Shown here one piece after another: positions 10,064-28,778 of a stretch of DNA of 30,837 nt. Source of the DNA: Solirubrobacteraceae bacterium (GTDB lineage Bacteria > Actinomycetota > Thermoleophilia > Solirubrobacterales > Solirubrobacteraceae). The stretch is taken from positions 1 through 30,837 of the forward strand of contig JAXDFS010000040.1 of NCBI GenBank assembly GCA_034665465.1, in the 5' to 3' direction. Positions within the stretch are counted from its first letter, which is position 1, and every line of letters starts with the position of its first letter. Made by a program: the position numbers and the translations under genes. Under the pieces are notes generated by a model. It ran no database searches. It was not told the origin of the DNA and worked only from the letters and a program-made list of their open reading frames with translations.

Positions 10064-10744
10064 CTACCCCATGCGCACGTACCCCAGCGCGCTGTCGGCG
10101 GTGTGCACGCGGCGCGAGACGCGGTCTGAGGAGTTGCCCTCGATCGTGGCGACCGAGCCATCGGGGCGGACGCCCTCGACGACGCCGATGTGCTCGTCCC
10201 AGACGATGAGGTCGCCCGGGCGCGGGACGACCCCGGGGCCGTTTGGCACGGCGCGGCCCGCGCGCTGAGCCCACGCGTAGAGCGCGTCGACGGAGCCGAA
10301 GCCCTGGCCCTGCTCGCCGAGCGGCATGCCCGCCTCGCGCGCGGCCCAGGAGGTGAAGTAGGCGCACCACGGGCCGACGCCGCTGCCGGCGGTGGCCTGG
10401 CGGTACTGGGCGATCCGCGCGGAGTCGTTGGAGCCCGGCGGCTGCTCGGCCTGGCCGACCTCGCCCTGGACGGCGGCCAGCAGCGCCGCTCCACCGCCGG
10501 TGGCCGGGACCGGGCCGGTGGCGGCCGGCGGCAGGCTGGACGCGCCCAGCACCGAGCCGGGGGCGATGGCCGGAGCTGCGGCAGGCACAGGCGCCCCGGG
10601 GGTCGCGCCCGCGGCGCTCTGCAGCAGCTGGGAGAACGACGAGGGTCCGACGCCGGAGAGCGTCGCCGGGGGCGCGACAGCCGGCGGCGGCGCCAGGCTG
10701 CCCTGGATCTCGGCGATCCGGACGAGGACCTCCTGGATGCTCAT
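10064..10744 (-). CDS. CHAP-domain peptidoglycan amidase/endopeptidase with a flagellar-type N-terminus
   Basis: ATG 10744 (ATGA overlap). MSIQEVLVRIAEIQ...FSQLLQ, then a Pro/Ala linker, then PWCAYFTSW (Cys), GDLIVWDEHIGVV (His) and TIEGNS. Confidence 0.85.
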   Translation of the reverse strand: MSIQEVLVRIAEIQGSLAPPPAVAPPATLSGVGPSSFSQLLQSAAGATPGAPVPAAAPAIAPGSVLGASSLPPAATGPVPATGGGAALLAAVQGEVGQAEQPPGSNDSARIAQYRQATAGSGVGPWCAYFTSWAAREAGMPLGEQGQGFGSVDALYAWAQRAGRAVPNGPGVVPRPGDLIVWDEHIGVVEGVRPDGSVATIEGNSSDRVSRRVHTADSALGYVRMG

Positions 10745-11469
10745 GGCCGCTCGCACCGGCGCGTCGCCTGGGCGACGGCGGGGATCGGGGCGTCGGGGAC
10801 GGTCAGGCAGCGGGCCAGGCGCTCGCGGTCGTCGCGCGCGACCTCGTAGCGGCCCTCGTCGCGCAGGTACTCGAACTCCGCCAGCGAGTGACACGACCCC
10901 CCGGGCGGCTGTGGCGAGGCCGGCGGGCGCACACCGGCTGCCAGCCCGGGCAGCCGGCGCAGGAGGATCTCGCGCGCGGCGGCCTCGACGCGCTCGTAGA
11001 GGCGCCCGCCGTCGTCGGAGGGCAGGACCGCGACCGCACGCTGCTCGACGATCGGCCCCGCGTGCAGGCCCGCGGTGAGCTCGTGCAGCGTGGCGCCGGC
11101 AGGGGTCCCCTCCCAGAGCGCCCAGAAGACGGGGTGCGTCCCGCGGCCCCACGGCAGCAGCCCCGGATGCAGGTTCCAGATCGCGCCCTCGTAGCGCGCG
11201 ACGAAGCCGGCGCCGAGGACGAACGGGAAGCCCACCGACAGCGCGGCGGATCCGGGCGAGAACTCCTGCGCCTGCGGGTCACCGGCGAAGACGTCGTGCC
11301 CGAGGTCGACCGCGAGCGCGACCAGCGCGTCGTCGAGGCAGACGACCTGGCGCACGCGCGCGCGCGGCGCGCTGCGCAGCGCCCATGCGCCCAGCGGCCC
11401 GCCGACGAGCAGGTCGAGGCCGCGGCTGGTCGACGTGACGCCGGTCGGTGTTCGGAGGGATGCGCCCAT
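10741..11469 (-). CDS. Formyltransferase-family protein (candidate sugar N-formyltransferase)
   Basis: SVGFPFVL...WNLHPGLLPWGRGTHPVFWAL..GTPAGATLHELTAGLHAGPIVEQ, the Formyl_trans_N signature NxHxxLLPxxRG. Confidence 0.82.
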   Translation of the reverse strand: MGASLRTPTGVTSTSRGLDLLVGGPLGAWALRSAPRARVRQVVCLDDALVALAVDLGHDVFAGDPQAQEFSPGSAALSVGFPFVLGAGFVARYEGAIWNLHPGLLPWGRGTHPVFWALWEGTPAGATLHELTAGLHAGPIVEQRAVAVLPSDDGGRLYERVEAAAREILLRRLPGLAAGVRPPASPQPPGGSCHSLAEFEYLRDEGRYEVARDDRERLARCLTVPDAPIPAVAQATRRCERP

Positions 11470-11481
11470 CAGGTCTCGCGT

Positions 11482-11508
11482 TCATCGGCGCCGATCGCCG
11501 GGACTTGA
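11482..11508 (-). promoter_or_regulatory. sigma28-type promoter for the formyltransferase-CHAP operon
   Basis: Minus strand CTCAAG: TCAA-N15-GCCGATGA. ATG 11469 lies 12 nt downstream. Confidence 0.8.
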
Positions 11509-11529
11509 GCCGCCCTGGACGGGGGTCGT

Positions 11530-11556
11530 TCAAGAAGCGCCGCCAAGCGCCGACCA
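11530..11556 (+). promoter_or_regulatory. sigma28-type promoter for GT module 1
   Basis: TCAA-N15-GCCGACCA. GTG 11564 lies 7 nt downstream. Confidence 0.78.
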
Positions 11557-11563
11557 CACGGGC

Positions 11564-12358
11564 GTGACCAGCGCCCCACTCGCCGTCGTGCCCGCCTACC
11601 TGCGAACCGCCGATGACCTCGACGCGCTGCGCCGCTGCCTGCACTCGCTTGCGCAGACGGCGCCCCAGGCGCAGGTGCTCGTGGTCGACGACTGCAGCCC
11701 GGCGGGTGAGCTCGTCGCCATGCTCGAGGTGGCCGCCGCAGAGGACGGCTTCGAGCTCGAGCGCCGGCCCCTCAACGGGGGCTTCGCGGCGACCGTCAAC
11801 GCGGGGCTGCGCCGCGCCCTGGCGCAGGAGCGCGACGCGGTGCTCGTCAGCCCCGACGTCGAGTTCCATGCGGCCGGCTGGCTGGAGGCGATGCTCGCCC
11901 GCACCGGCACCGACGCCCGCCCGGCTGCGGTCGTCGGCGCGCGCCTGCTGTATCCCAACGGGCTGCTGGCGCACGCCGGCATCCTCTTCTCGCTGCTGCA
12001 CCGCGGCTTCGCGCACCGCTACAACCTCGGCCCGGGCGAGCTGCCCGAGGCGCTCGTGCCCTGGCGCTGCCCGGTCGCGGGCGCGCTGCAGCTCATCCGC
12101 CACGACTGCCTCGCCGAGGTCGGCGTCTACGACGAGGCCTTCAACCTCGGCTGGGAGGACGTCGACTACTGCCTGCGCGTGTTCGCCGCCGGGCGCGAGT
12201 GCATCTACGAGCCGGCCGCCTGCGCGACGCACAGCGGGTCGCTGTCTCGCTCGCGCACAGCCAAGGGCCAGGAGGACTGGGAGCGCCGGGCGCTCGAGGT
12301 CCTGCTCGCCAAGCACGCCGCCGCCGACCTGTCCGCGTTCGTTCCGGCCTACGCATGA
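11564..12358 (+). CDS. Family 2 glycosyltransferase (module 1)
   Basis: [54 protein letters not shown]. The DxD position reads SPD. Confidence 0.88.
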   Translation: MTSAPLAVVPAYLRTADDLDALRRCLHSLAQTAPQAQVLVVDDCSPAGELVAMLEVAAAEDGFELERRPLNGGFAATVNAGLRRALAQERDAVLVSPDVEFHAAGWLEAMLARTGTDARPAAVVGARLLYPNGLLAHAGILFSLLHRGFAHRYNLGPGELPEALVPWRCPVAGALQLIRHDCLAEVGVYDEAFNLGWEDVDYCLRVFAAGRECIYEPAACATHSGSLSRSRTAKGQEDWERRALEVLLAKHAAADLSAFVPAYA

Positions 12359-13404
12359 ACGCGCTCTTCATCGGCATCGGCACCTCGGCGCGCTGCTGGT
12401 ATCGCTGCGCGCTGCCCGCCCGCGCGCTCGGCGCCGACTGGATCGGCGTCGGCGGCCACCCGACGGCGCTCGTCATCCGCACGGGACAGTGCACGCGCGA
12501 CATCGGCGGCATCGACGACCTCGCGACCTACGACACGGTGGTGCTGCAGCAGCCCCACGGCCCGGCGTGGTCGAATGCGATCGCCGAGCTGCGCCGCCGC
12601 GGCACGCGCGTGCTCTTCGAGGTCGACGAGGACCCGCGCGGCGCTGCGAACGCGACCGATCGCGGCGAGCGCACGGGCGGCGCGAGCCCGGCCACGGTGC
12701 ATGCGCTCGAGCAGGCGATGAGCGCCTGCGACGGGATCATCTGCCCGACCCGGCCGCTCGCCGACGCGCTGCGGGGCTTCAACGAAGACGCCTGGGTCTG
12801 CCCCAACGGCATCGACCTCGGCCGCTACGCGCTGAGCCGCACGGCGCGCGAGACGGTGACGATCGGCTGGGCCGGGCGGGCGGCGGCGTCCGGCGCCGCG
12901 ATCGCGCCGTGGCGCCGAGAGCTCGAGGAGGTGCTCGCCTCGCGCCCGGCGACCTCGTTCATGAGCGTCGGCGCCGAGGGCGTCGCGTCGGCGCTCGCGG
13001 AGCGCTTCGGGCCGCGGCGCTGCCAGGGGCTGCCGTGGGGCCCGATCGAGACCTATCCGGCCGCGATGAGCTCGTTCGACATCGCGCTCGCACCCGCCGC
13101 GCCGACCACCTGCTTTCGCAGCCGCGGCGACCTGCAGTGGCTCGAGGCCGCGGCGCTCGCCATCCCGGTCGTCGCCGGCGCCGCGCTGCACCCCGAGATC
13201 GAGGACGGCGTCACCGGACTGCTCGCCGCGACACCCGCGCAGGCGCGGGCTGCCATTCTCGCGCTCGTCGACGACGAGGGACTGCGCGATCGCATCGGCC
13301 TCGCCGCGCGGGCGTATGTCCGCGAGCACCGCTGCATCGAGGCCGTCGCGCCCGCATGGGCGCGCGCGCTGGCCGGCGCATCCGCCGCGGCGCAGGCGGC
13401 CTGA
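12355..13404 (+). CDS. GT-B/GT4-like glycosyltransferase (module 1; motifs degenerate)
   Basis: ATG 12355 (ATGA overlap). CWYRCALPA, VCPNGID, TIGWAG, FDIALAP, WLEAAALAIPVV, IEDGVTGLL. Confidence 0.85.
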   Translation: MNALFIGIGTSARCWYRCALPARALGADWIGVGGHPTALVIRTGQCTRDIGGIDDLATYDTVVLQQPHGPAWSNAIAELRRRGTRVLFEVDEDPRGAANATDRGERTGGASPATVHALEQAMSACDGIICPTRPLADALRGFNEDAWVCPNGIDLGRYALSRTARETVTIGWAGRAAASGAAIAPWRRELEEVLASRPATSFMSVGAEGVASALAERFGPRRCQGLPWGPIETYPAAMSSFDIALAPAAPTTCFRSRGDLQWLEAAALAIPVVAGAALHPEIEDGVTGLLAATPAQARAAILALVDDEGLRDRIGLAARAYVREHRCIEAVAPAWARALAGASAAAQAA

Positions 13405-13418
13405 CCGGCTCAGGCCGC
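13396..13418. terminator. Inverted repeat built from the two convergent stop codons (possible bidirectional terminator or pause site)
   Basis: GCGGCCTGA-ccggc-TCAGGCCGC, a 9-bp stem with no U-tract. Confidence 0.35.
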
Positions 13419-13955
13419 GGGCGCGGCGACGGCAGTCTGCCCCTTGCGCAGGCGCAGCAGGGCGTTGACCCCGCCGCGGCGGCGCGGCCGTGTGCCGGGC
13501 ATGGCGGCCAGTGAACGGCGGGCCGCGACGTCGAGCGCCGGAAGCTCCTTGATCCGCGAGCTGCGCGGGTTGGTCAGGACCGAGCCGGTCGCGTCGAGGA
13601 AGCGCAGCTCGTCGGCGATCGCGACCTGCAGCAGGCCGGTGGTGTGCCCCGCCGCGCCGTCGACCGCCCGCGCGAGCGCGTTGACGCCGGCGAGCGCGTC
13701 GCGCGTCTGCAGCTGTGCGCGGCTCAGCCCGCGGGCCGGCGTGATCCGCACGAGCTGGGTGCGCACGCCCTGGTCGAAGTCGACAAGCCGCGCGTGGATG
13801 TAGTGGACGTCCTGCGGCGCGAGCCGGTGGTGGCGCATCGGGCCCGCGACGACGATCGCGGCTGCCGAGCCGAACAGCAGCACGATCGCGAGGGCGACCG
13901 TCAGGCGCACGATCGTCCGGGGCCGGGTGGATGGGGGGCGCGGCGGCGACAGCAT
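13410..13955 (-). CDS. Hypothetical membrane-anchored or secreted protein, 181 aa
   Basis: ATG 13955 preceded by GAGGGG. One hydrophobic stretch (LTVALAIVLLFGSAAAIVVAGP) followed by a helical soluble region. Confidence 0.6.
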   Translation of the reverse strand: MLSPPRPPSTRPRTIVRLTVALAIVLLFGSAAAIVVAGPMRHHRLAPQDVHYIHARLVDFDQGVRTQLVRITPARGLSRAQLQTRDALAGVNALARAVDGAAGHTTGLLQVAIADELRFLDATGSVLTNPRSSRIKELPALDVAARRSLAAMPGTRPRRRGGVNALLRLRKGQTAVAAPAA

Positions 13956-14043
13956 CGGCACGGAGATTCCCCTCGCAGGCCATCGCGCAAGCACGAGTTT
14001 GCGTGCAACTGTCCTTCTGAAGGGCCTGCCGGGCGCCGGAACG

Positions 14044-17000
14044 CTACGCCGCGGACCGCAGCGCCTGACGGATCCGCTTCGCGGACACCTGCCCGTTGAC
14101 GCCGAGCCCCTGCGCGAACTGGCTGACACGCAGCTCCTGCAGCATCCAGGCGATCTCGCGCGGCGCACCCGGCCGGCTGCGAAACTCGGCTTCGAGCTCG
14201 TGGATCGTGCCGAGCTTGTCGCGGTCGGCGGCGACCGCGTCGGGCAGCCGTGCCAGGCGCCGTGCCGCGGCCCGCAGGTAGCGCGCGATGTCGGGCAGGC
14301 GCTGGGCTCCGGCCGCGGTGACGAAGCCGGGATAGACGAGCCCGCCGAGCTGGGCGGCGACGTCCAGGCGAGCGGGCTGCAGCGCGGGGTCGGCGCCGAC
14401 CGCGTCCAGCTGCATCCGCAGCTCGCGCGCCGCGTCGAGGACCTCCACGACCTGTGCCGCGACGGCGGCCGTCTTCGCCGGCAGTCCGGCCGCCACGTGA
14501 TCGCGCAGCGTGGCGAAGCCGGCCGCGTCCCAGGCCGGTCCGCCGGCGTCGGCGACGAGCGCGTCGAGCGCCGCGGCGAGCAGGTCGTCGAGCACGCCCT
14601 CGTGCGGCGCGCCCGCGAGCGTCAGCGCGGCGGCGCCGGGAAGGCCGCGCTGGACGCTGCGCAGCGGCGAGGGCACGGTCAGCGCGAGCAGCCGGCGCGT
14701 CCCGGTGCGCATCGCGGCGTATTGCGCGCCGGGGGTCTCGAACGCGCGCACGCCGATCGTCTGCCCCTCGTCGACGAGCGCGGGATATGCGCGCACGGCG
14801 CTGCCGGCGCCCGGCAGCTCGACGAACCGCGGCAGGTCGCCGAGCGTCCACTCGCGCAGGCCGGTGCGCTCGAGCGACGCCGTGGCTGCGGCCAGCTCGG
14901 CGCGCAGCCGCGGGCGCACCTGCGCGCGCAGCGCGTCGAGGTCCTCCCCGGCCGCGATGATCGTGGCGGCGTCGTCCTCCACGCGGAACGTGACCCGCAG
15001 GTGCGCCGGCAGCCTGCTCCGGTCGAACAGCTGCGGATCGACGCGCACGCCGCGCAGGTGCTCGAGCTCGCGCGCGACCGCCGCCACCAGGGTGCCGCGG
15101 CGCGGGCGCAGGTGCTCGACGACCTCCTCGGCCACGTCGGGGATCGGCACGAGCGGCCGGCGCAGGTCCTTGGGCAGCGACCGGATGAGCGCGGTGACGA
15201 GCTCGGTGCGCAGCCCCGGCACGAGCCAGTCGAAGCCCTCGGGACGCAGGCTGCCGAGCGCCTTCAGCGGGACGTGGACGGTCACGCCGTCGTCGTCGCT
15301 GCCGGGCTCGAAGCGGTAGCTCAGCGCGAGCGTCTCCTCGCCCTGGCGCCAGGCGTCGGGCAGCGCCGCCGGATCGAGCAGCTGCGCGGCGTCGGGGGCG
15401 AGCAGCTTCTCGCGGGTGAACGTCAGCAGGTCGGGGTCGTCGCGGCGGGCGTGCTTGAACCAGCGGTCGAAGTGCGCGGCCGAGACGACGCAGTCCGAGA
15501 CGCGGGCGTCGTAGAAGGCGAAGATCGCCTCCTCGCCGGGCACGAGGTCGCGGCGGCGGACGCGGTGCTCGAGCTCGGCGAGCTCCTCGAGCAGCTGCTG
15601 GTTGGCCTCGGCGAAGCGGTGGCGCGTCGTCCACTCGCCCGCCACGAGGGCGTGGCGGATGAAGAGCTCGCGCGAGAGGACGGGGTCGATCGGCCCGTAG
15701 GCGACCCTGCGCCCGGCGATGACCGGCAGCCCGTAGAGGGTCGCGCGCTCGGTGGCCACGACGCTGCCGCGCTTGTGATCCCAGCGCGGCTCGGAGTACG
15801 TCCGCTCGAGCAGATGGCCGGCGAGCGGCTCGATCCACTCGGGTTGCACCTGCGCGGCGACACGGCCCCACAGCCGCGACGTCTCGACGAGCTCGGCGAC
15901 CATGACCCAGGCCGGCTGCCTGCGGTGCAGCGCCGAGCCGGGCGCGATCGCAAAGCGCGCGCCGCGCGGGCCGAGGTACTCGCGCCGGCCGGCGTCGCGC
16001 AGGCCCAGCTGCGACAGCAGGCCGGAGAGCAGCGCGACGTGGACGTGCTCGGGATCGCCGGGCTGCTGGTTGAGCGTCACGCCGACCGAGCGCGCGGCCT
16101 GGCGCAGCTGGGAGGCGAGGTCCTGCCATTCGCGCACGCGCATGTAGTGCAGGAACTCGGCGCGGCAGAGCCGGCGAAACGCGCTGCCCGACAGCTCGCG
16201 GCGGTGCTCGCGCAGGTGCCGCCACAGGTTGATGTAGGAGAGGAAGTCCGAGCGCTCGTCGGCGAAGCGCGCGTGCTGCTCGTCGGCGGCGGCGCGCTCG
16301 TCGGTGGGACGCACGCGCGGGTCCTGGATCGACAGCGCGGCGGCGATGACGATGACCTCGTCGGCGCAGCCCAGGCGATCGGCCTCCAGGACCATCCGGC
16401 CCAGCCGCGGGTCGACGGGCAGTTGGGCCAGGCGCCGGCCCAGCGGCGTGAGGCGCTCGCGCGGCTCGCGGGCGGCCGGATCGAAGGCGCCGAGCTCGTG
16501 CAGCAGCGCCTTGCCGTCGCGGATCTGCCGTGCGTCGGGCGGGTCGAGGAAGCCGAAGTCCTCGACCTCCCCCAGGCCCAGGGCGGCCATCTGCAGGATG
16601 ACCGAGGCGAGGCTCGTGCGCAGGATCTCGGGATCGGTGTAGACGGGCCGGGCGGCGAAGTCCTCCTCGTCGTAGAGACGGATGCAGATGCCGTCCGAGG
16701 TGCGCCCGCAGCGGCCCTTGCGCTGCTCGGCGGAGGCCTGGGAGATCGGCTCGATCGGCAGGCGCTGGACCTTCAGCCGCGTGCTGTAGCGGCTGATGCG
16801 GGCAGTGCCGGGATCGACGACAGAGCCGATGCCGGGGACCGTCAGCGAGGTCTCGGCGACGTTCGTCGCCAGCACGACGCGGCGCGCCTCATGGACCTTG
16901 AAGACGCGCTGCTGCTCGGCGGGCGACAGGCGCGCGTAGAGCGGCAGGATCTCGGTCTCGGCGGGCAGTCGCCCGGTCAGCGCCTCGGCGGCGTCGCGGA

Positions 17001-17904
17001 TCTCGCGCTCGCCGCTGAGGAAGACGAGCACGTCCCCGGGTCCGTCCTGCAGCAGCTCCTCGACGGCGTCGCCGATCGCGTCGACCGGATCGCCCTCGTC
17101 GGCGACCGGGCGGTTGCGCACCTCTACGGGGAAGGTGCGCCCGGAGACCTCGACGATCGGCGCGCCACCGAAGTGGCGGCTGAAGCGCTCGGGGTCGATC
17201 GTGGCGCTCGTGATGACGAGCTTGAGGTCGGGGCGCTGGGGCAGCAGCCCCTTGAGGTAGCCGAGTAGGAAGTCGATGTTCAGGCTGCGCTCGTGCGCCT
17301 CGTCGACGATGATCGTGTCGTAGCGGCGCAGCAGGCCGTCGTGCTGGATTTCCGCAAGCAGCAGGCCGTCGGTGACGAGGCGCACGAGCGTGTCCGCGCG
17401 CGAGCGGTCGTCGAAGCGCACGGCGTAGCCGACGGCCTCGCCGAGCTCGGCGCCGAGCTCCTCGGCGATCCGCACGGCCACCGTGCGGGCGGCGAGCCGG
17501 CGCGGCTGGGTGTGGGCGATCGCGCCGCGCACGCCGCGGCCGAGCTCGAGGCAGATCTTCGGCAGCTGCGTCGTCTTGCCCGAGCCGGTCTCGCCCGCCA
17601 CGACGACGACCTGGTTGTCGCGGATGGCCGCCAGCAGGTCCTCGCGGCGCGCGCTGACCGGCAGCTGCTCGGGATAGCTGACCTCCGGGACGGCGGCCCG
17701 CCGCAGGGCGATGCGCTCCTCGGCGCGGGCGATCTCGCCGGCGATGCGGGCCGGCGCATCGCCGCCGTCGCGGATGGCGCGGTCCAGCCGCCGCGCGAGG
17801 CGGTGCTCGTCGCGAATCGTCAGCTCGCGCAGGCGCGCCCGCAGCTCGGCGGACTGCGGGTCGGCCGCGCCACGCCGCCGGGTCTGCTCGGAGGACGTAG
17901 CCAT
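14044..17904 (-). CDS. hrpA: ATP-dependent DEAH-box RNA helicase HrpA
   Basis: GETGSGKTTQLPK, TQPRRLAA, DEAHERSLNIDFLLG, SAT, TNVAETSLT, QRKGRCGR, and a long HrpA-type C-terminus. Start taken at ATG 17904 (MATSSEQ). Confidence 0.95.
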   Translation of the reverse strand: MATSSEQTRRRGAADPQSAELRARLRELTIRDEHRLARRLDRAIRDGGDAPARIAGEIARAEERIALRRAAVPEVSYPEQLPVSARREDLLAAIRDNQVVVVAGETGSGKTTQLPKICLELGRGVRGAIAHTQPRRLAARTVAVRIAEELGAELGEAVGYAVRFDDRSRADTLVRLVTDGLLLAEIQHDGLLRRYDTIIVDEAHERSLNIDFLLGYLKGLLPQRPDLKLVITSATIDPERFSRHFGGAPIVEVSGRTFPVEVRNRPVADEGDPVDAIGDAVEELLQDGPGDVLVFLSGEREIRDAAEALTGRLPAETEILPLYARLSPAEQQRVFKVHEARRVVLATNVAETSLTVPGIGSVVDPGTARISRYSTRLKVQRLPIEPISQASAEQRKGRCGRTSDGICIRLYDEEDFAARPVYTDPEILRTSLASVILQMAALGLGEVEDFGFLDPPDARQIRDGKALLHELGAFDPAAREPRERLTPLGRRLAQLPVDPRLGRMVLEADRLGCADEVIVIAAALSIQDPRVRPTDERAAADEQHARFADERSDFLSYINLWRHLREHRRELSGSAFRRLCRAEFLHYMRVREWQDLASQLRQAARSVGVTLNQQPGDPEHVHVALLSGLLSQLGLRDAGRREYLGPRGARFAIAPGSALHRRQPAWVMVAELVETSRLWGRVAAQVQPEWIEPLAGHLLERTYSEPRWDHKRGSVVATERATLYGLPVIAGRRVAYGPIDPVLSRELFIRHALVAGEWTTRHRFAEANQQLLEELAELEHRVRRRDLVPGEEAIFAFYDARVSDCVVSAAHFDRWFKHARRDDPDLLTFTREKLLAPDAAQLLDPAALPDAWRQGEETLALSYRFEPGSDDDGVTVHVPLKALGSLRPEGFDWLVPGLRTELVTALIRSLPKDLRRPLVPIPDVAEEVVEHLRPRRGTLVAAVARELEHLRGVRVDPQLFDRSRLPAHLRVTFRVEDDAATIIAAGEDLDALRAQVRPRLRAELAAATASLERTGLREWTLGDLPRFVELPGAGSAVRAYPALVDEGQTIGVRAFETPGAQYAAMRTGTRRLLALTVPSPLRSVQRGLPGAAALTLAGAPHEGVLDDLLAAALDALVADAGGPAWDAAGFATLRDHVAAGLPAKTAAVAAQVVEVLDAARELRMQLDAVGADPALQPARLDVAAQLGGLVYPGFVTAAGAQRLPDIARYLRAAARRLARLPDAVAADRDKLGTIHELEAEFRSRPGAPREIAWMLQELRVSQFAQGLGVNGQVSAKRIRQALRSAA

Positions 17905-17944
17905 GCATGGCCGAGCATAGGCGGCTGCTGCGATCATCGACTGC

Positions 17945-18331
17945 GTGGGCGATGGCATGCGTGTGGACAAGTGGCTGTGGGCATCGCGCCTGCTGAAGAC
18001 CCGCACGCTCGCGGCGGAGGCGGTCAAGGGCGGGCGCGTGCAGGTCAACGGCGCGCGGGTGAAGCCCAGCCGCGAGGTCGGGGCCGGCGACGAGCTCGAG
18101 GTCACGATCGGCCGGGTTCGCCGAACGGTCGTCGTGCGCGGGGTCGCCGAGCGCCGCGGGCCCGCGAAGGAGGCCCAGCTGCTCTACGAGGAGACGGCGG
18201 AGAGCGTGGCCGCCCGCGAGCTGCAGCGCGAGCGCGACCGGCTGGCGTCGCCGCCGCCGGGAGCCGACCTCGGCGCGCGGCCGACGAAGCGCGACCGCCG
18301 GCGGCTGGACTCGACGCGGGGGCGGCGGTAG
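17945..18331 (+). CDS. hslR: S4-domain heat-shock protein 15 (ribosome-associated)
   Basis: MRVDKWLWASRLLKTRTLAAEAVKGGRVQVNG..KPS..V..GD...A.LLYEET...GARPTKRDRRRLD. Start is GTG 17945 or ATG 17957. Confidence 0.9.
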   Translation: MGDGMRVDKWLWASRLLKTRTLAAEAVKGGRVQVNGARVKPSREVGAGDELEVTIGRVRRTVVVRGVAERRGPAKEAQLLYEETAESVAARELQRERDRLASPPPGADLGARPTKRDRRRLDSTRGRR

Positions 18332-18373
18332 CGGGGCTCCGTGTTCGCCTGCGGCGCGAGCTTCACTGTGGGA

Positions 18374-18441: not shown

Positions 18442-18468
18442 TCAAGGCCGCGCTCGCCCGGACGATTA
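18442..18468 (+). promoter_or_regulatory. sigma28-type promoter for GT module 2
   Basis: CTCAAG: TCAA-N15-GACGATTA. GTG 18477 lies 8 nt downstream. Confidence 0.7.
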
Positions 18469-18476: not shown

Positions 18477-19271
18477 GTGACCTCCGACGCCGTGATCGGC
18501 ATCGTGCCGGCGTCCGCCCGCAGCCGGGAGGATCTGGAGCGCCTCGCCCGTTGCCTGACGTCCGCGCGGGCGACCGCGCCGGCGCTCGCGCTGCTCGTCG
18601 CCGAGACCGGCTGGTCGGAGCCGGCCCTCATGGGCGCCGTCGCCGCAGAGGCGACCGGCCGCGACCTCGTCCACGCGCCCTACGAGGGCGAGCAGCCCAG
18701 CGTGGGCGCCACCGTGGCCGCCGGCATGGGCGTCGCGCTGGAGCTGGGCTGCGCGGCGGTCGTCATCGACCCCGACGTCGAGTTCCGCGAGCCCGGCTGG
18801 CTCGAGCACATGCTCGCCCGCACCGACACCAAGGGGCGCCCCGCCGCCGTGGTCGGCGCGCGCACGGTGTACGCGGGTGCGATCGTCGAGCAGGCCGGCA
18901 TCTACTTCTCGCTGTTCGAGCGCCGCCTGCGCCCGCGCTATCGCTCGGCGCCGAGCGGCCTGCCGGCGGCGTCGACCCCGGCCTGCTGCCCGGTGGGCGC
19001 CGGCGTGGTGCTCGTGCGGCTGGACACGATGCAGGCCGTCGGGCGCTACGACGCGGCCTGCGCGGCCGGTCACGAGACGCTGGACTACTGCCTGCGCGCG
19101 TTCGGCGCGGGCCTGGAGTGCATCCTGGAGCCGGCGGCCGAGGCGGTGCGCCTGCGCTCGCCGGGAGCCGACTCGGCGTTGCCCGCGCGCGCCGTCGAGC
19201 GCTCCGAGCAGCACTTCAACGCCAAGCACCGCGCGACCGACATGTCCCCGTGGATTCCGGCCGTCCTGTGA
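18477..19271 (+). CDS. GT2-fold protein (module 2), catalytic motifs eroded
   Basis: Clear paralogue of the module 1 and 3 GT2s (DPDVEF.EPGWLEHMLART....[25 protein letters not shown]). VVDDCS is replaced by VAETGW and EDVD by ETLD. Confidence 0.82.
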   Translation: MTSDAVIGIVPASARSREDLERLARCLTSARATAPALALLVAETGWSEPALMGAVAAEATGRDLVHAPYEGEQPSVGATVAAGMGVALELGCAAVVIDPDVEFREPGWLEHMLARTDTKGRPAAVVGARTVYAGAIVEQAGIYFSLFERRLRPRYRSAPSGLPAASTPACCPVGAGVVLVRLDTMQAVGRYDAACAAGHETLDYCLRAFGAGLECILEPAAEAVRLRSPGADSALPARAVERSEQHFNAKHRATDMSPWIPAVL

Positions 19272-20323
19272 GCCTGCCGGACACGCTCTTCGTCGGCAAG
19301 GCGGGCAGCGGCATCTGCTGGTATCGCTGCACGCTGCCTGCGATGGCGCTGGGGCTGGACTGGGTGAGCGTCGCCGGCGACCCGCCGCAGGCCGCCGTCC
19401 GCACCGGGCTGACCCGCGAGCCGGTGGGGCTGGCGGACCTCTCGCGCTACGAGGTCGTCGTCCTGCAGCAGCCCTTCGCCACCGGCTGGAAGCAGGTCAT
19501 CCGCGACTTAAAGGCCGCGGGCACCACGGTGCTCTTCGAGATCGACGACTACGTGCACGCGGTGCGCAAGATGCACAGCCACGAGCTGCAGAAGTACTTC
19601 ACCAAGGAGCTGCTGGCGTCGGCCGAGTGCAACATGCGGCTCGCCGACGGCGTGATCTGCTCGACGCCCTACCTCGCGCGCCGGTACACGAGCCTGCACC
19701 GGCGCATCTGGGTCTGCACGAACGGCCTGGACCTCGCCCGCTACGACCTCGAGCCGCCGCCGCGCGACGGCGTGACGATCGGCTGGGCGGGCGGCATCGG
19801 CCACGACGAGGCGGTGCGCGCCTGGCTGCCGGCCGTCGCCGAGGTCCTGCGGGCGCGCCCGCAGGCGCGCTTCGTGACCGTCGGCGCCCCATTCGCGCAG
19901 CTGCTCGAGCGCGAGTTCGGCGCCGAGCGCTGCCAGAGCGTCCCGGGCGCCCCGCTGGAGATGTATCCCGCCGCGATGACGCGCTTCGACATCTCGATCG
20001 CGCCCGCGGCCCACAACAAGCTCTACCGCGGCAAGAGCGACCTGCGCTGGCTGGAGTCCTCGGCGCTGGGCACGCCTGTCGTCTGCGATCCGTTCACCTA
20101 CGCCGGCGTCGAAGACGGCGTCACCGGCTTTCACGCCCGCACCGGCGCCGAGGTGCGCGACGCGCTGATCGCACTCGTGGACGACCCGGCGCTGCGCAGC
20201 CGCGTCGGCGAGGCCGCCCGCGCCCACGTGCGCGAGCACCGCTCCGCGACCGTCGCTGCGCAGCAGTGGGCGCGGGTGCTGCGCGAGGTCGCCGAGCTGC
20301 GCGCCGTGGCGTCTGCCGCCTGA
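19268..20323 (+). CDS. GT-B/GT4-like glycosyltransferase (module 2)
   Basis: GTG 19268 (GTGA overlap). CWYRCTLPA, FEIDDY, DGVICST, GWAGGIGH, YRGKSDLRWLESSALGTPVV. Confidence 0.88.
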   Translation: MSLPDTLFVGKAGSGICWYRCTLPAMALGLDWVSVAGDPPQAAVRTGLTREPVGLADLSRYEVVVLQQPFATGWKQVIRDLKAAGTTVLFEIDDYVHAVRKMHSHELQKYFTKELLASAECNMRLADGVICSTPYLARRYTSLHRRIWVCTNGLDLARYDLEPPPRDGVTIGWAGGIGHDEAVRAWLPAVAEVLRARPQARFVTVGAPFAQLLEREFGAERCQSVPGAPLEMYPAAMTRFDISIAPAAHNKLYRGKSDLRWLESSALGTPVVCDPFTYAGVEDGVTGFHARTGAEVRDALIALVDDPALRSRVGEAARAHVREHRSATVAAQQWARVLREVAELRAVASAA

Positions 20324-21351: not shown

Positions 21352-21401
21352 ACTGAAAACCCGCCCGGCTGACGCCGCCGGCTCGCGGTAGCGTCCCCCG
21401 A

Positions 21402-22067
21402 ATGCGACGCACCCCCGCACAGCGGGCCCTGCGCCAGCTTCGTCGGGTGCGGTCGTACAAGCGCTACCACCGCCGAACGCGGCGGCGGGTGCCCTGGCTG
21501 CAGACGATCGCCGTGACCGCGTTGCTGCCGCTCCTGTCGCTGATCTCGCGAGTGCGGATCGCCGGGCGCGAGAACATCCCCGACGGCGGCTATATCGCAG
21601 CGGCCAACCATCGTTCGAATCTCGACGCGCTGTTCGTCGCGCTTGCGATCCGGCGGCGCATCAGGTTCATGGGAAAGAGCGAGCTCTTCGACGGGCGCTG
21701 GGGATGGCTGCTGAACCGCATGGGGGCCTTCCCGGTGCAGCGCGGCGTGTGGGACGTGGAGGCGTTCGAGACCGCGGCGACGGTGCTCAACCGCGGGCTG
21801 GTGATGAGCATCTTCCCGGAGGGCGGGATACACACCGGTCGCGTGGCGGCAAAGTCCGGCGTCGGGCACATCGCCCACCTCGCCGGCGCGACCGTCCTAC
21901 CGGTCCACCTGGACGGGACCCGCTCGCTGTACACGCCGTGGCGCTGGCCGAAGGTGCGGGTCGAGATCGGCGCCCCGTTGTACGTCGAGGAGCTCGCGCA
22001 GCCCTCCCGCGAGCAGTCACAGCGCACCGCGCAGCGCATCCTCGACGCGATCTACGACCTCGCTTGA
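21402..22067 (+). CDS. 1-acyl-sn-glycerol-3-phosphate acyltransferase (PlsC family)
   Basis: NHRSNLD (HxxxxD), FMGKSELF, GAFPVQRG, IFPEG. TAGCGT -10 (21389-21394) lies 7 nt before the ATG. Confidence 0.9.
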   Translation: MRRTPAQRALRQLRRVRSYKRYHRRTRRRVPWLQTIAVTALLPLLSLISRVRIAGRENIPDGGYIAAANHRSNLDALFVALAIRRRIRFMGKSELFDGRWGWLLNRMGAFPVQRGVWDVEAFETAATVLNRGLVMSIFPEGGIHTGRVAAKSGVGHIAHLAGATVLPVHLDGTRSLYTPWRWPKVRVEIGAPLYVEELAQPSREQSQRTAQRILDAIYDLA

Positions 22068-22099
22068 ACGACGTCGCCGGGGCCGGGCCCGCGACTCCA

Positions 22100-22915
22100 T
22101 CAACCGCCGGGAATCTCCGCGTCCAGAAACGGCGTGATCATCGCCATCAGCCACCCGGAGCGGTCCAGCAGACCGTGACCCGGCGGCACGAAGTGGCTGG
22201 TGCCGGGAAGCACCGCGAGCTGTGATCGGGGCAGGCCTTCGATGTCGCCCATCACCCCGCCTCCCAGCAGCCCGAAGAGCTCCACGGCGTGCTCGAGGCG
22301 GACCCCGTCGCTGTCGCCCAGGACGATCAGCGTGGGCGCTTCGATCCGGGGGATGTCCTCTCGCCAGCTGAAGTCGGTCGTGTCGAGTCGGGTGAGCTTC
22401 TCGACGAGCCTCGGGAAGTCGCCTGGGTTGGGCGCCGTGCGCAGGTACGCCTCCTCGATCGGCGAGCCCGCGAAGAGCTCGGGGGTGATCGACGGGAACA
22501 TCTCCAGCGCCACGGCGTGCATCCCGTCGGCGGCGAACGACGCGGCCGCCACGACGAGCCTGCGCACGAGATCGGGATGGCGGATCGCGAGCTGCAGGGC
22601 GATGGCGCCCCCCATGCTGTAGCCCACGACGTCGGCGGCGGGAATCTCCAGGTGGCGCAGCAGCGCGGCGGTGTCGTCGGCCATCTGCTCGTAGGTCAGC
22701 GGGCGGTCGATGTCGGCCGTCCGCCCGTGCCCCTGCTGCTCGACGGCGATGACCTGCCGGCCCTCGGCCAGCGCGGGCAGGATCGGGCCCATCAGGTCGA
22801 TCGTCATGTACGCGCCGTGCAGGAGCAGCAGCGGCCTGCCCTGGCCGTGGATCTCGTAGTACATGCGCAGGCCCTCGACCGGCGCGTAGCCGCTGTGCGG
22901 ATCACTGTTCGGCAT
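22100..22915 (-). CDS. Alpha/beta-fold hydrolase
   Basis: [32 protein letters not shown] (GxSxG), GDSDGV, LPGTSH. Start taken at ATG 22915, 7 nt after a minus-strand TAGCGT (22923-22928). Confidence 0.9.
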
Positions 22916-22964
22916 GCGGCGCACGCTATCGCGACCGGCCGGATCCCTCGACCCCCGGCGGGGC

Positions 22965-22991
22965 TCAAGAACGCCCTCCAGCGGCCGACCA
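22965..22991 (+). promoter_or_regulatory. sigma28-type promoter for GT module 3
   Basis: CTCAAG: TCAA-N15-GCCGACCA. GTG 22999 lies 7 nt downstream. Confidence 0.8.
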
Positions 22992-22998
22992 CCTGCGC

Positions 22999-23799
22999 GT
23001 GACGGATTCCCTCGCCTGTCTCGCCGTCGTGCCGACCTACCTGCGCACCGAGCAGGACCTCGACGTGGTCCTGCGCTGCCTGGTCTCCCTGCGCCAGACC
23101 GCCCCGGAGGTCGAGGTGCTCGTCGTCGACGACTGCAGCCCGGCCACGAAGCTGGCCGACCTCATCGAGATGGCCGCCGAGGAGCTCGAGATCGAGCTTT
23201 GCCGGCTGCCGCTCAACGGCGGCTACTCGCGCGCGGTCAACGCAGGCCTGCGGCGCGCCCGCGACGGGGGCCGCGACGCCCTGCTCGTCGACTCCGACGT
23301 CGTCTTCGACCACTCCGGCTGGCTCTCGCCGATGATCGCGCGCACCGGCACCGACGGCATGCCGGCGGCCGTCGTCGGCGCGCGGCTGCTCTTCCCCACC
23401 GGGATGCTCCAGCACGCCGGCCTGCACTACTCGACGCTCACGCGCGACTGGTCGCACCGCATGACGTTCGGCCCGGCCGACCTGCCCGAGGCGCTCGTGC
23501 CGTGCAGCTGCCCCGTGAGCGCCGCGCTGCAGCTCATCCGCCACGAGTGCCTCACCGCCGTCGGCCTCTACGACGAGAGCTTTCGCATGGGCTACGAGGA
23601 CGTCGACTACTGCCTGCGCGTGTTCGCCTCGGGCCGCGAGTGCGTCTACGAGCCCGCGGCCTGCGCCACCCACGCCGAGAAGACCTTCCGCGGGCGCCCC
23701 GGCGACGGCCAGGCCGACTGGGAGCAGCAGTCGCTGCGCGCGCTCAACACGAAGTATCCGACCATCGAGATGACGGGATTCCGGCCGTGCTACGAGTGA
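22999..23799 (+). CDS. Family 2 glycosyltransferase (module 3; motifs intact)
   Basis: [47 protein letters not shown]. Confidence 0.9.
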
Positions 23800-24854
23800 A
23801 CGAGACCGCGCCCAACGTCCTCTTCGCCGGCCTGGCCGCGACCCCCCTGTGCTGGTATCGCTGCGCGCTGCCCGCGCGCGCCCTCGGCGCCGACTGGACC
23901 GGCGTCAGCGGCGATCCGGACGCCATGATCTTCCACACCGGCCACGCCGGGCGCCCGCTGCGCGGCATCGAGGACTTCGCGACCTACGACATCGTCGTGC
24001 TCCAGCAGAAGCGCGGGTGCGCATGGGTGCGCGCGATCCGCGACCTCCAGGCCGCCGGCGTGAAGGTCCTCTACGAGATCGACGACTACGTGCACGGCGT
24101 CGCCAAGGCCAAGAACCACGACTTCGCCTCGCAGTTCGACCGCAGGCAGCTCACCGAGCACGAGCAGGCCATGCGCGCCTGCGACGGCGTCATCTGCTCG
24201 ACGCGCTACATCGCCACCCGCTACCGCGCCTTCAACGCCAACGTGTGGGTCTGCGAGAACGGCCTGGACATGGGCCGCTATGCGCTCACCCGGCCCGCGC
24301 GCGACACCGTCACGATCGGCTGGTCGGGCGGCACCGGGCACCGGCCCGCGCTCGCGCCCTGGCTGCGCGAGCTGCAGGCGGTCATGGACGCCCGGCCGAG
24401 CACCCGCTTCATGACGGTCGGCGATCGGGGTTACACGGCGCCGTTCGCCGCGCGCTACGGCGCCGGGCGCGCGATCGAGCTCGGCTGGGCCGCGCTCGAG
24501 GTCTACCCCGCCGCGATGACGCACTTCGACGTCGCGCTGGCCCCGGCTACCAACAGCGGCTTCTTTCGCGGCAAGAGCGACCTGCGCTGGCTGGAGGCCT
24601 CGGCCCTCGGAATCCCGATCGTCGCCGACCCCGCGCTGTACCCGGCGATCGAGCACGGCGTCACCGGCCTGCACGCCGCCTCGTCCGCCGCCGCCCGCGA
24701 GGCGATCCTCGCGCTCGTCGACGACCGCGCGCTGCGCGACCGCATCGGGACCGCAGCACGCGAGCACGTCGGCGAGCACCGCTCCAGCGCCGCCGTCGCC
24801 CCGCAATGGGCGGCCGCTTTCGCTCAGGCGCGCGCGATCGCCCGCGCCGCCTGA
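23796..24854 (+). CDS. GT-B/GT4-like glycosyltransferase (module 3)
   Basis: GTG 23796 (GTGA overlap). CWYRCALPA, YEIDDY, GWSGGTGH, FRGKSDLRWLEASALGIPIV. Confidence 0.88.
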   Translation: MNETAPNVLFAGLAATPLCWYRCALPARALGADWTGVSGDPDAMIFHTGHAGRPLRGIEDFATYDIVVLQQKRGCAWVRAIRDLQAAGVKVLYEIDDYVHGVAKAKNHDFASQFDRRQLTEHEQAMRACDGVICSTRYIATRYRAFNANVWVCENGLDMGRYALTRPARDTVTIGWSGGTGHRPALAPWLRELQAVMDARPSTRFMTVGDRGYTAPFAARYGAGRAIELGWAALEVYPAAMTHFDVALAPATNSGFFRGKSDLRWLEASALGIPIVADPALYPAIEHGVTGLHAASSAAAREAILALVDDRALRDRIGTAAREHVGEHRSSAAVAPQWAAAFAQARAIARAA

Positions 24855-25660
24855 CGCAGGATCAGGTCGTCGCGCACGCCGTCGCAGAGGCCGTCGCGCA
24901 GGTCGAACTCGGCCCATGAGCGAAACGTCGGCGCGTCGGCGCGACCGCGCGCCATCTTGACCGCGAACTCGCTGCGCGACTTGCTCCAGTAGTGATTCAG
25001 GCGCAGGCGCGCCACCGAGACCGTCGCGCTGAACGGCCCGTGCACCGGGCGCCCGAGCTCGTCGACCGCCGCGGCGCCGCCGGCGTACTGCAGGAAGTGG
25101 GGGTTCGAGCAGCCCGTGACCGCGCGCGGGTCGACGATGCTCTTGACGTGCGAGTTCAGCGGCCGGTGGCCGCCGCCCGCCAGCGCCAGGTGCGCGTAGG
25201 GCACGACGTGGTCCAGCGCGCCGCGTCGCGTGAAGTTCTCCAGCACGCCGCCGGGCGGGCGCTCGATGTGCCCGGAGGAGCCGAACGAGACCCAGTTGAC
25301 CACGAGCGCTGGGTGCGCCTCGTAGGCGGCGAGGACGTCGCGCAGGTCGGCGTCGGGCTCGGGGGCGAAGAGGAACTCGTCGACGTCGACGAACGCGATC
25401 CAGCGCGAGGCGCCGGCATGCGCGGCGGCACAATGGGCGTACGCGCGCATCTGCGCGACCGGCCCCGGCGCCTGGTAGAGCGTGACGAGGCCGGCGGCGA
25501 CGTAGGGCGCCAGCAGCGTCTCGGGCTCGTCGGCGCTGTCGTTGTCGTAGAGGTAGAAGTGCTCGACCCCCACGCCGAGGTGGAAGTCGATCCACTCGCG
25601 CAGGTACTCCCCCTCGTCGCGGAAGATCGCGCCGATCGAGAGGTAGCTCGCCGCATGCAT
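24824..25660 (-). CDS. GT92/DUF23-like glycosyltransferase
   Basis: YLSIGAIFRDEGEYLREWIDFHLGVGVEHFYLYDNDS...WIAFVDVDEFLF...KSIVDP...LNHYWSKSRSEF..K..RG. Start is ATG 25660 or GTG 25666. Confidence 0.85.
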   Translation of the reverse strand: MHAASYLSIGAIFRDEGEYLREWIDFHLGVGVEHFYLYDNDSADEPETLLAPYVAAGLVTLYQAPGPVAQMRAYAHCAAAHAGASRWIAFVDVDEFLFAPEPDADLRDVLAAYEAHPALVVNWVSFGSSGHIERPPGGVLENFTRRGALDHVVPYAHLALAGGGHRPLNSHVKSIVDPRAVTGCSNPHFLQYAGGAAAVDELGRPVHGPFSATVSVARLRLNHYWSKSRSEFAVKMARGRADAPTFRSWAEFDLRDGLCDGVRDDLILRQAARAIARA

Positions 25661-25670
25661 GCTCACGGAC

Positions 25671-27743: not shown

Positions 27744-27750
27744 GGGCTGG

Positions 27751-27777
27751 TGTTCGGCAGCAGCCGCGCGTCCTTGA
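27751..27777 (-). promoter_or_regulatory. sigma28-type promoter for the methyltransferase-GT92 operon
   Basis: Minus strand TTCAAG: TCAA-N15-GCCGAACA. ATG 27743 lies 7 nt downstream. Confidence 0.78.
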
Positions 27778-27800
27778 ACGAACGACGCAACGAGCGAGCG

Positions 27801-27834
27801 AACGCGAAACGGGCGGCCCCTGCGGGCCGCCCGT
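27801..27834 (-). terminator. Intrinsic terminator after fliC
   Basis: Minus strand CGGGCGGCCC-GCAG-GGGCCGCCCG followed by TTTCGCGTT, about 40 nt after the fliC stop. Confidence 0.75.
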
Positions 27835-27872
27835 CGCGTCGTGTCGGTCTGTGCGGACCGTTTTCGCTGTCG

Positions 27873-28778
27873 CTAGCGCAGCAGCGACAGGACCGACTGC
27901 GGAGCCTGGTTGGCCTGCGAGAGCATGCTCGTGCCGGCCTGCTGCAGGATCTGCGACTTCGTGAACTGGACCATCTCGTCCGCCATGTCGACGTCCCTGA
28001 TCCGGCTCTCCGCCGACACCAGGTTCTCCTGGTAGCTGGCGAGGTTGGCGATGCGGTGCTCGAGGCGGTTCTGGACGGAGCCGAACGTGGCCCGCGTGTC
28101 GGAGACCTCGGCGATCGCCTTGTCGATGTCGTCGAGCTTGACGGCCGCGAAATCGGCCACCGCGGCGCTCGAGCTGGCGTCGATGCTGGTGATCTTGCTC
28201 AGGCTGGTCGCCGACGCCGTCAGATCCGACGTCGAGATGGTGATGGTCTCACCGTCGTTGGCGCCGACCTGCAGGTTGATGGTGGAGGCGCTGCCGCCCC
28301 CGCCCACGACCGCGGATGCGCTGCCGGTGCCCGTAACGACCGGGGCACCGTCGATGTCGCCCTGGAAGAGCGCGATCCCGTTGAACTTGGTGTTCGTCCG
28401 GATGTCGCTGATCTCCTTGCCGAGCTGGCCGACCTCGGAGACGATCGCCTTCTTGTCGGTGTCGCTGAGCGTGTCGTTGCCGAACTGCGTGCGCAGCTCG
28501 CGGACGCGCTGCAGCATCGAGTGGACCTCGTTGAGCGCGCCCTCTCCCGTCTGCACGAGCGAGACGCCGTCCTGCGCGTTGCGCTGAGCCTGGCTGAGGC
28601 CGGTGATCTGGCCGCGCATCTTCTCGCTGATCGCGAGGCCGGCCGCGTCGTCGGCGGCGCGGTTGATGCGGTAGCCGGAGCTCAGGCGCTCCATCGACTT
28701 CGCCATCTTCTCGGAGTTGGCGACGAGCTGACGGTGGGTGTTGAAGGCTTCGACGTTGTTGTTGATACGAAGGGACAT
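27873..28778 (-). CDS. fliC: Flagellin, 301 aa
   Basis: MSLRINNNVEA, ERLSSGYRINRAADDAAGLAISEKMR, LQVGANDG, RATFGSVQNRLEH, ESRIRDVDMA, QANQAPQSVLSLLR. Confidence 0.98.
   Translation of the reverse strand: MSLRINNNVEAFNTHRQLVANSEKMAKSMERLSSGYRINRAADDAAGLAISEKMRGQITGLSQAQRNAQDGVSLVQTGEGALNEVHSMLQRVRELRTQFGNDTLSDTDKKAIVSEVGQLGKEISDIRTNTKFNGIALFQGDIDGAPVVTGTGSASAVVGGGGSASTINLQVGANDGETITISTSDLTASATSLSKITSIDASSSAAVADFAAVKLDDIDKAIAEVSDTRATFGSVQNRLEHRIANLASYQENLVSAESRIRDVDMADEMVQFTKSQILQQAGTSMLSQANQAPQSVLSLLR

Follow-up and report, generated by a model that had tools for sequence, protein, structure and literature searches.

Several genes for glycan-modifying enzymes lie scattered among unrelated genes near the flagellin gene fliC on contig JAXDFS010000040.1 of a Solirubrobacteraceae bacterium (assembly GCA_034665465.1), and the question that this locus raises is whether they make up one pathway and what that pathway glycosylates. 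The window analysed here is the entire contig (30,837 nucleotides, 30.8 kb, 74% GC); it belongs to a soil-metagenome genome of 3.4 Mb that is 80% complete. In the initial annotation of the window the genes had been taken for a flagellum-linked glycosylation pathway coordinated by sigma-28, and all the computed tests agree with this, flagellin being the presumed acceptor. The locus is probably a flagellin glycosylation island, the products of which would O-glycosylate flagellin in the cytoplasm.

Gene Content of the Locus

Because lists of open reading frames (ORFs) are useless at 74% GC, genes were taken from a frame plot of third-position GC (GC3) and then checked with Pfam. The resulting map has nine genes of glycan-modifying type in five small units, as annotated initially, and places them between a block of flagellar genes on the left and fliC. 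They comprise three pairs of a family-2 glycosyltransferase (GT2a-c) and a GT4-like glycosyltransferase (GT4a-c), a GT92-family glycosyltransferase, a methyltransferase fusion and a formyltransferase-fold protein. The units are indeed separated by unrelated housekeeping genes, namely hrpA with a small membrane protein (13410-18105) and a block of a zinc-dependent alcohol dehydrogenase, a PlsC acyltransferase and an alpha/beta hydrolase (20374-22924). One gene boundary had to be redrawn: the long ORF 10064-11152, implied by the start coordinate of the interval, is no gene but a composite of the formyltransferase-fold gene and a CHAP-domain gene, which are in different frames and overlap in ATGA, the frame switching at 10741-10744 (GC3 plot, Pfam). 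The CHAP gene, translationally coupled to the formyltransferase-fold gene, is a member of its unit, which the earlier count had left out.

Promoters and the Predicted Sigma-28 Regulon

The window holds six exact copies of the pattern TCAAG-N14-GCCGA, where shuffling leads one to expect 0.08, and these precede flgF, the formyltransferase-fold gene, GT2a, GT2c, the methyltransferase fusion and fliC. Each of the five units, as had been proposed, carries its own copy of the promoter found in front of fliC and flgF: four units have the exact motif and the GT2b unit has a variant that ends in GACGATTA. The consensus of the unit promoters is TCAAG-N14-GCCGAnnA or, written alternatively, TCAA(G)-N15(14)-GCCGA[T/A/C]nA. 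From the -10 box to the start codon there are 7-12 nucleotides (nt) at every window copy except that of fliC (69 nt), therefore most of these mRNAs should be leaderless.

It could be objected that the motif is no sigma-28 promoter but the binding site of some other factor or a relic of duplication, so that the units would be expressed apart from the flagellar programme; its -35 element reads TCAA instead of TAAA, and the last three bases of the -10 element vary. We consider this highly improbable. The sigma-28 consensus is TAAA-N15-GCCGATAA, which the shape of the window motif, TCAA-N15-GCCGATGA, matches, and one relative (G143) carries TAAAG before fliC. The distance to the start codons is fixed at the 7-12 nt given above. 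Across the assembly a stricter pattern gives 19 matches, 15 of them intergenic, and the genes behind these include flgB, flgF, fliG, fliC, two cheW genes and four of the glycan units, together with an FG-GAP/collagen-repeat gene and four small genes without assigned function. In G125, a nearly complete genome of the same genus, the motif is matched 12 times, as against one match for the reversed control pattern, and half of the matches (6/12) fall in the stretch that leads from flgF to fliC and the glycan genes; the divergent promoter pair of the formyltransferase-fold unit and GT2a is present there as well. G125, G131, G173 and G143, which represent three genera, keep promoter sites ahead of their GT2, fusion, CHAP and fliC orthologues, with spacers that differ, and this excludes a recent duplication. 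Finally, two genes for FliA/WhiG-family sigma factors score above the curated cut-off (TIGR02479; 274.8 and 203.4 bits); they lie at G000:C25:2989-3669 and G000:C230:253-927, and either product could read the motif. The five units are thus predicted to be read by the flagellar sigma factor (sigma-28, FliA/WhiG type), and, as far as sequence can tell, the case for a sigma-28 regulon is about as strong as such evidence gets.

As to the other motif-bearing genes, the exact motif stands before a gene for a 648-amino-acid (aa) protein with FG-GAP repeats, Ig-like domains and collagen triple helices (L003, G000:C94 1055-3086, minus strand), which may belong to the surface of cells in the motile stage and could take the place of flagellin as glycan acceptor. 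The four small genes (L004 (C172) 4478-5137; L007 (C351) 8246-8678; L008 (C420) 6701-7145; L001 (C31) 5070-5390) are candidates for addition to the flagellar regulon; one of them encodes a protein rich in zinc-ribbon-like Cys pairs, and the motif site on C420 is kept in G125 (C3:384329). An eighth motif-like site, within the GT92 coding region (24934-24960, minus strand; TCAAG-N15-GCCGACGC), was discarded as chance or antisense, having no gene downstream and running antisense into GT4c. A search for RNA found soil metatranscriptome contigs that share at most 12% of words with fliC; these are conserved flagellin fragments, probably from relatives. A simple scan for terminators and sigma-70 promoters yielded nothing of use in DNA with 74% GC.

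Association with Flagella in Related Genomes

An even sample of the order (201 related genomes, not independent of each other) contains flagellin in 25 genomes. The methyltransferase fusion was found in four, all of them flagellated, and close orthologues of the GT4-like proteins (E <1e-100) likewise in four, all flagellated and each with the gene no more than 10 kb from fliC. The fusion enzyme is encoded in a flagellar locus in six of the seven contexts inspected, the exception being a weak, partial match in G137 that lies on another contig than the flagellins of that genome.

The linkage of glycosyltransferase genes with the flagellin gene is kept in G125, G131, G173, G143 and four metagenomic contigs. 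Compact versions occur: in G173 the order is fliC x4-CHAP-GT2-GT4, and one metagenomic contig reads flhA-flhF-PilZ-x-fliC-fliC-x-GT4-GT2-GT4-CHAP-fusion-GT92. Orthologues of the fusion at 43-44% identity are still within flagellar loci, beside CHAP or GT92, and GT92 stands beside the fusion again in two distant relatives. In relatives, too, the genes are dispersed and hrpA lies among them. The named homologues come from Solirubrobacteraceae and Thermoleophilia.

The Methyltransferase Fusion

The 690-aa enzyme is predicted to consist of a class I S-adenosylmethionine (SAM) methyltransferase domain (residues ~25-325), an APH/choline-kinase-like domain (~335-560) and a Rossmann domain (~561-690). 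Its full model, built from a 30-sequence alignment, has a predicted local distance difference test (pLDDT) score of 90.6. The methyltransferase domain is recognised by Pfam (Methyltransf_23/12/25/11) and aligns over residues 25-325 with many methyltransferases at a VIA-align Z of ~18. As VIA-align on the full model reported this domain alone, the C-terminal part was folded separately (pLDDT 87.3). Residues 335-560 then match RIO kinases, macrolide phosphotransferases and Ack1 in Foldseek (E 3e-4 to 1e-3) and, in VIA-align, Bud32 (Z 8.1), APH(3') (7.4), amicoumacin kinase (7.3) and the choline kinase LicA (6.8), all of which are moderate scores. Residues 561-690 resemble the C-terminal half of GT-B enzymes (VIA-align Z 9.8 to Gap1). 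Though the fold scores are moderate, the kinase motifs are clear: K354, FDATWWN (D460 and N465; D-x4-N) and IDEEW (D479 and E481; IDxE) form the Brenner/choline-kinase pattern, and among 30 homologues these residues are kept in 27 (K354), 30 (D460), 28 (N465), 26 (D479) and 29 (E481) sequences. The methyl decoration, and possibly phosphate decoration, proposed in the initial annotation gains support from this combination of a class I methyltransferase with a kinase-like domain that conserves D-x4-N and IDxE.

The closest structural analogue is WbdD (4AZS, 4AX8, 4AZT), which Foldseek aligned over 567-586 columns of the full model; among the top 50 matches listed it is the sole target aligned over more than 550 columns, i.e., over both domains. 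WbdD of E. coli O9a is, according to Clarke et al. (2011) as cited in PMC6254364, a methyltransferase and kinase in one protein, from which the O-polysaccharide receives its methyl phosphate cap. Like WbdD, the fusion enzyme has a methyltransferase domain followed by a kinase-like one, is associated with glycosyltransferases and keeps D-x4-N and IDxE. It differs in several respects. Profile searches of PDB sequences, made with the kinase-like region and with the whole fusion, detected no sequence homology to WbdD, so that structural alignment alone links the two, with a kinase fold of moderate score (Foldseek E 3e-4, VIA-align Z 7-8). In the model a Rossmann domain takes the place of the C-terminal coiled coil that serves WbdD as a molecular ruler. 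Also, WbdD belongs to an ABC-transporter O-antigen pathway, whereas the fusion enzyme would act on a protein-linked cytoplasmic glycan. The models therefore suggest an enzyme that works like a WbdD-type sugar kinase-methyltransferase, and we do not class it as a member of the WbdD family. That some members of the fusion family are joined to GT2 domains supports a role in glycan synthesis. In a distant relative (L057 12296-15487) the fusion gene is followed, in a flagellar hook/motor locus, by a gene for a 1063-aa Pkinase/APH, TPR and GT2 protein, another kinase-glycosyltransferase combination tied to flagella.

Soluble GT4-like enzymes together with a methyltransferase and no export genes would also suit the synthesis of a cytoplasmic methylated oligo- or polysaccharide like the polymethylated polysaccharides of mycobacteria, the proximity to fliC being historical and the filament unrelated; in fact, the fold of the C-terminal Rossmann domain weakly matches, among others, a methylmannose-polysaccharide mannosyltransferase (Z 6.8). 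That match is generic, however, and a system found in flagellated genomes only, in flagellar loci in almost all contexts inspected and with conserved sigma-28-type promoters ahead of each unit makes such a glycan extremely improbable.

Glycosyltransferase Modules

Within every GT2/GT4-like pair the stop and start codons overlap. Pairwise identity is 46-61% among the GT2 paralogues and 45-55% among the GT4-like ones, which indicates that the triplication of this module is old. GT2b has lost the nucleotide-binding motif VVDDCSP (it reads LVAE--TGWSE) and retains DPDVEF and the later motifs; judging by these residues, it may be non-catalytic, perhaps a pseudo-enzyme partner of GT4b. No counterpart of the GT2b-GT4b module turned up in G125 or G131, both of the same genus. 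Alignment of the GT4-like proteins with PDB sequences revealed a weak, distant similarity to PimB'/MshA and nothing else, and a profile search of PDB sequences with the GT2 alignment gave nothing informative. The GT4c and GT92 genes are convergent, their 3' ends overlapping by 31 nt (24824-24854).

Formyltransferase-Fold and CHAP Proteins

The sugar N-formyltransferases ArnA (N-terminal domain), WlaRD, VioF and Rv3404c act after a DegT-type aminotransferase. The formyltransferase-fold protein resembles them in its Formyl_trans_N fold and its N-x-H...LLP...G motif. In G125 and two metagenomic relatives the order is promoter-DegT-(methyltransferase/GT2)-formyltransferase-(methyltransferase)-CHAP, divergent from GT2-GT4; since a DegT/DnrJ/EryC1 aminotransferase gene precedes it there in one sigma-28 unit, the formyltransferase-fold gene belongs to an amino-sugar branch. 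Unlike in the enzymes named, the catalytic Asp is replaced by His135, N99 and H101 being present, so that the Asn-His-Asp triad is incomplete; the position equivalent to His135 varies across the family (D/H/N/C/S/T), and the G125 orthologue has Lys at the position of Asn. All NCBIfam scores of the protein are far below the cut-offs. A coupled DegT gene is missing from the window as well: where G125 has a 395-aa DegT between the sigma-28-type promoter and the formyltransferase-fold gene (L044 12563-13790), the promoter here abuts the gene (11469-11530). With DegT gone and His135 in place of Asp, the formyl decoration that the initial annotation had envisaged is doubtful in this organism.

As for the CHAP protein, it has neither a signal peptide nor a hydrophobic segment, and its N-terminal 95 residues are rich in Ala and Pro. 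Its gene lies inside the flagellin and glycan islands of several genera, in almost every relative examined, beside fliC, the fusion gene or the formyltransferase-fold gene. Cell-wall hydrolases connected with flagella are known, such as the sigma-D-dependent autolysins LytC/LytD/LytF of Bacillus subtilis and separate hydrolase partners of FlgJ such as SltF. The CHAP protein shares with them a domain of the wall-hydrolase type behind a sigma-28-type promoter, and the FlgJ of this organism has the rod-binding domain only. Unlike them, it has no signal peptide, and in relatives its gene is embedded in glycan genes (DegT-MT/GT2-formyltransferase-CHAP, where MT is methyltransferase; GT4-GT2-GT4-CHAP-fusion) and not in rod genes. 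It could be either a flagellum-associated cell-wall hydrolase or an enzyme of the pathway.

Acceptor and Proposed Pathway

The enzymes are all without membrane segments, judging by the hydrophobicity of their sequences, and a Pfam scan of the window found no nucleotide-sugar enzyme, ABC exporter, Wzx, Wzy or polyprenyl-phosphate priming transferase, the first four of which had been listed as missing from the outset. Soluble enzymes without flippase, polymerase, exporter or priming transferase make cytoplasmic O-glycosylation of flagellin the best reading. Systems that depend on Maf or FlmG are known to O-glycosylate flagellin in the cytoplasm before type III export (PMC4065374, PMC7591256), and a soluble pathway predicted to be made with flagellin and encoded beside fliC in several genera fits such a scheme. 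The flagellin itself is short (301 aa) and has a central segment (~residues 140-215) rich in Ser, Thr, Gly and Ala. Elsewhere in the assembly RmlC and four DegT-type aminotransferases are encoded, so that dTDP-sugar and amino-sugar donors can be made. A nonulosonic-acid/Maf-type system was considered and rejected, as neither PF01973 nor NeuB (PF03102) turned up in the assembly, which is 80% complete.

Several points weigh against glycosylation of flagellin. The window contains no sugar-nucleotide pathway genes and no protein of the Maf, TPR-bearing FlmG or GmaR type recognisable by Pfam, to which the missing PF01973 of the assembly may be added. No close orthologue of the G125 DegT was found in the assembly, at its 80% completeness, the best DegT being 28-36% identical. 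The fusion enzyme is absent from 21 of the 25 flagellated genomes sampled, hence the system is not needed for flagella in the order. The predicted sigma-28 regulon also takes in the FG-GAP/collagen-repeat surface protein, a possible alternative acceptor. A complex prediction for GT2c, GT4c and flagellin scored 0.00, which is evidence neither way.

Some of these points would suit enzymes that belong to the flagellar regulon and modify another acceptor, either a sigma-28-controlled exported protein (the FG-GAP/collagen-repeat protein, the hook-filament junction or the cap) or an envelope component remodelled at motility. The motif precedes the FG-GAP/collagen-repeat gene and several genes without assigned function, a CHAP protein of the cell-wall-hydrolase type is embedded in the island, and no recognised flagellin-binding module (TPR, Maf) was found. 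However, it is fliC itself that the genes accompany, in several genera and also where they form compact operons, and an envelope glycan would need unlinked export genes, given soluble enzymes and no flippase or exporter. We regard a different acceptor as unlikely.

If flagellin is the acceptor, the pathway could operate as follows. At the late flagellar switch-on the three GT2+GT4-like pairs and GT92, all soluble, would be made alongside flagellin and would build in the cytoplasm an O-linked oligosaccharide on its Ser/Thr-rich central segment, with donors drawn from the general nucleotide-sugar pool. Glycosylation would precede export via the flagellar type III system, and no lipid carrier, flippase or polymerase would be needed. 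The 690-aa enzyme would phosphorylate a sugar hydroxyl with its kinase-like domain and methylate with its SAM domain, so that the chain would be decorated or capped; the target of methylation may be the phosphate, as in WbdD. The formyltransferase-fold protein, perhaps inactive or re-purposed here, may be what is left of an amino-sugar branch that relatives have in full, with DegT acting first and an N-acylating enzyme second. The co-transcribed CHAP protein would act as a flagellum-associated cell-wall hydrolase or as an amide-bond enzyme of the glycan pathway.

A bolder version may be imagined, in which the chain is made by heterodimer-like GT2+GT4 modules, one of them with a dead GT2 as scaffold, receives a methyl-phosphate end or decoration from the WbdD-like enzyme, and involves cytoplasmic CHAP as an amide-bond-forming or -cleaving step of the pathway and not as a wall hydrolase. 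We think it rather unlikely; if it were true, an enzyme that caps chains in the O-antigen manner would, with this methyltransferase-kinase, act for the first time on a protein-linked glycan of the cytoplasm.

Comparison with Known Flagellin Glycosylation Islands

Much work has been done on flagellin glycosylation in Proteobacteria, Campylobacterota and Firmicutes, and islands of genes for it are well known. Pseudomonas syringae has fgt1/fgt2 and vio genes for rhamnose and an N-acylated, O-methylated 4-amino-4,6-dideoxyglucose, and P. aeruginosa has FgtA. In Clostridioides difficile the glycosylation genes follow fliC under SigD, the type A locus likewise being a non-nonulosonic flagellin glycosylation island. 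Flagellin glycans can bear methylated decorations and decorations that contain phosphate. The type B flagellin glycosylation locus of C. difficile uses ordinary (non-nonulosonic) sugars (PMC5207246).

With these ordinary-sugar islands of P. syringae, P. aeruginosa and C. difficile the present locus shares soluble glycosyltransferases near fliC, decorating enzymes (a methyltransferase, an amino-sugar branch), the absence of export machinery and expression alongside late flagellar genes, the latter predicted here from promoters. In contrast to them, nothing related in sequence to FgtA/Fgt1, CD0240, Maf, FlmG or GmaR was recognised (FgtA/Fgt1 were not compared directly), the GT2+GT4-like module is triplicated, and the genes form five predicted leaderless units, each with its own promoter, between which hrpA and metabolic genes lie. 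As no known flagellin-directed transferase is present, the enzyme that recognises flagellin would have to be a new one, either a GT2, a GT4-like or the GT92 protein.

Feature Coordinates and Neighbouring Genes

Apart from the features collected in Table 1, the left third of the window holds flgF, flgG, flgJ, flgN, flgK, flgL, fliW, csrA and a PAS-GGDEF-EAL gene. At its right end fliC is accompanied by a small gene without assigned function and genes for a PilZ protein and an FlhF-like NTPase. The zinc-dependent dehydrogenase and PlsC-type acyltransferase genes (20374-22067) follow GT4b on the same strand, with gaps of 51 nt, and no sigma-28-type motif stands before either of them. The two may be transcribed together with the GT2b-GT4b module or have nothing to do with it.

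Table 1. Glycan-type genes, flagellin and sigma-28-type promoter copies in the window.
Feature	Coordinates	Strand	Basis and remarks
Sigma-28-type promoter of flgF	538..564	+	Exact motif; flgF starts 8 nt on; reference copy outside the interval 10064-28778
CHAP-domain protein, 226 aa	10064..10744	-	Pfam CHAP, 3.9e-11; start overlaps stop of formyltransferase-fold gene
Formyltransferase-fold protein, 242 aa	10741..11469	-	Pfam Formyl_trans_N, 6.1e-17, C-terminal half of profile only
Sigma-28-type promoter of formyltransferase-CHAP unit	11482..11508	-	Motif; back to back with GT2a promoter
Sigma-28-type promoter of GT2a-GT4a	11530..11556	+	Motif; start codon 7 nt downstream
GT2a, soluble family-2 glycosyltransferase, 264 aa	11564..12358	+	Pfam Glycos_transf_2
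GT4-like a, GT-B enzyme	12355..13404	+	Pfam Glyco_trans_1_4 and 1_2; start overlaps GT2a stop
Variant promoter of GT2b-GT4b, TCAAG-N14-GACGATTA	18442..18468	+	One G-to-A change; 8 nt to start at 18477
GT2b, paralogue of GT2a/GT2c	18477..19271	+	No Pfam match; 46% identical to GT2a
GT4-like b	19268..20323	+	Pfam; alignment with paralogues
Sigma-28-type promoter of GT2c-GT4c	22965..22991	+	Motif; conserved in G125 and G131
GT2c	22999..23799	+	Pfam Glycos_transf_2, 1.1e-14
GT4-like c	23796..24854	+	Pfam; close orthologues near fliC, flagellated genomes only
GT92-family glycosyltransferase, second gene of fusion unit	24824..25660	-	Pfam Glyco_transf_92, 5.9e-20
Three-domain methyltransferase fusion, 690 aa	25671..27743	-	Pfam, structure models, fold searches, motif conservation
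Sigma-28-type promoter of methyltransferase-fusion/GT92 unit	27751..27777	-	Motif; conserved in G125 and G143
Flagellin, 301 aa, presumed acceptor	27873..28778	-	Pfam Flagellin_N and Flagellin_C
Sigma-28-type promoter of fliC, TCAAG-N14-GCCGATGA	28848..28874	-	Motif; 69-nt leader after it

Significance

To our knowledge, no flagellin glycan has been characterised in Thermoleophilia, and a literature search found no paper joining flagellin, glycosyltransferase and Solirubrobacter. The locus is new in its lineage, in having none of the known families of flagellin transferases, in its threefold GT2+GT4-like module, in its kinase-methyltransferase of WbdD-like architecture and in a conserved dispersal into predicted leaderless sigma-28-type units, each with its own promoter. 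Thermoleophilia are an abundant, barely cultured class of soil bacteria in which flagellin glycosylation has been little studied, and the locus provides a clean, readable candidate sigma-28 regulon with about a dozen sites per genome, mostly leaderless. The fusion family comprises several hundred members, all annotated merely as 'methyltransferase'; they are candidate sugar kinase-methyltransferases, and genomic context now predicts their function. The named carriers among the homologues, Baekduia alba and Candidatus Solirubrobacter pratensis, make the prediction of flagellin glycosylation testable.

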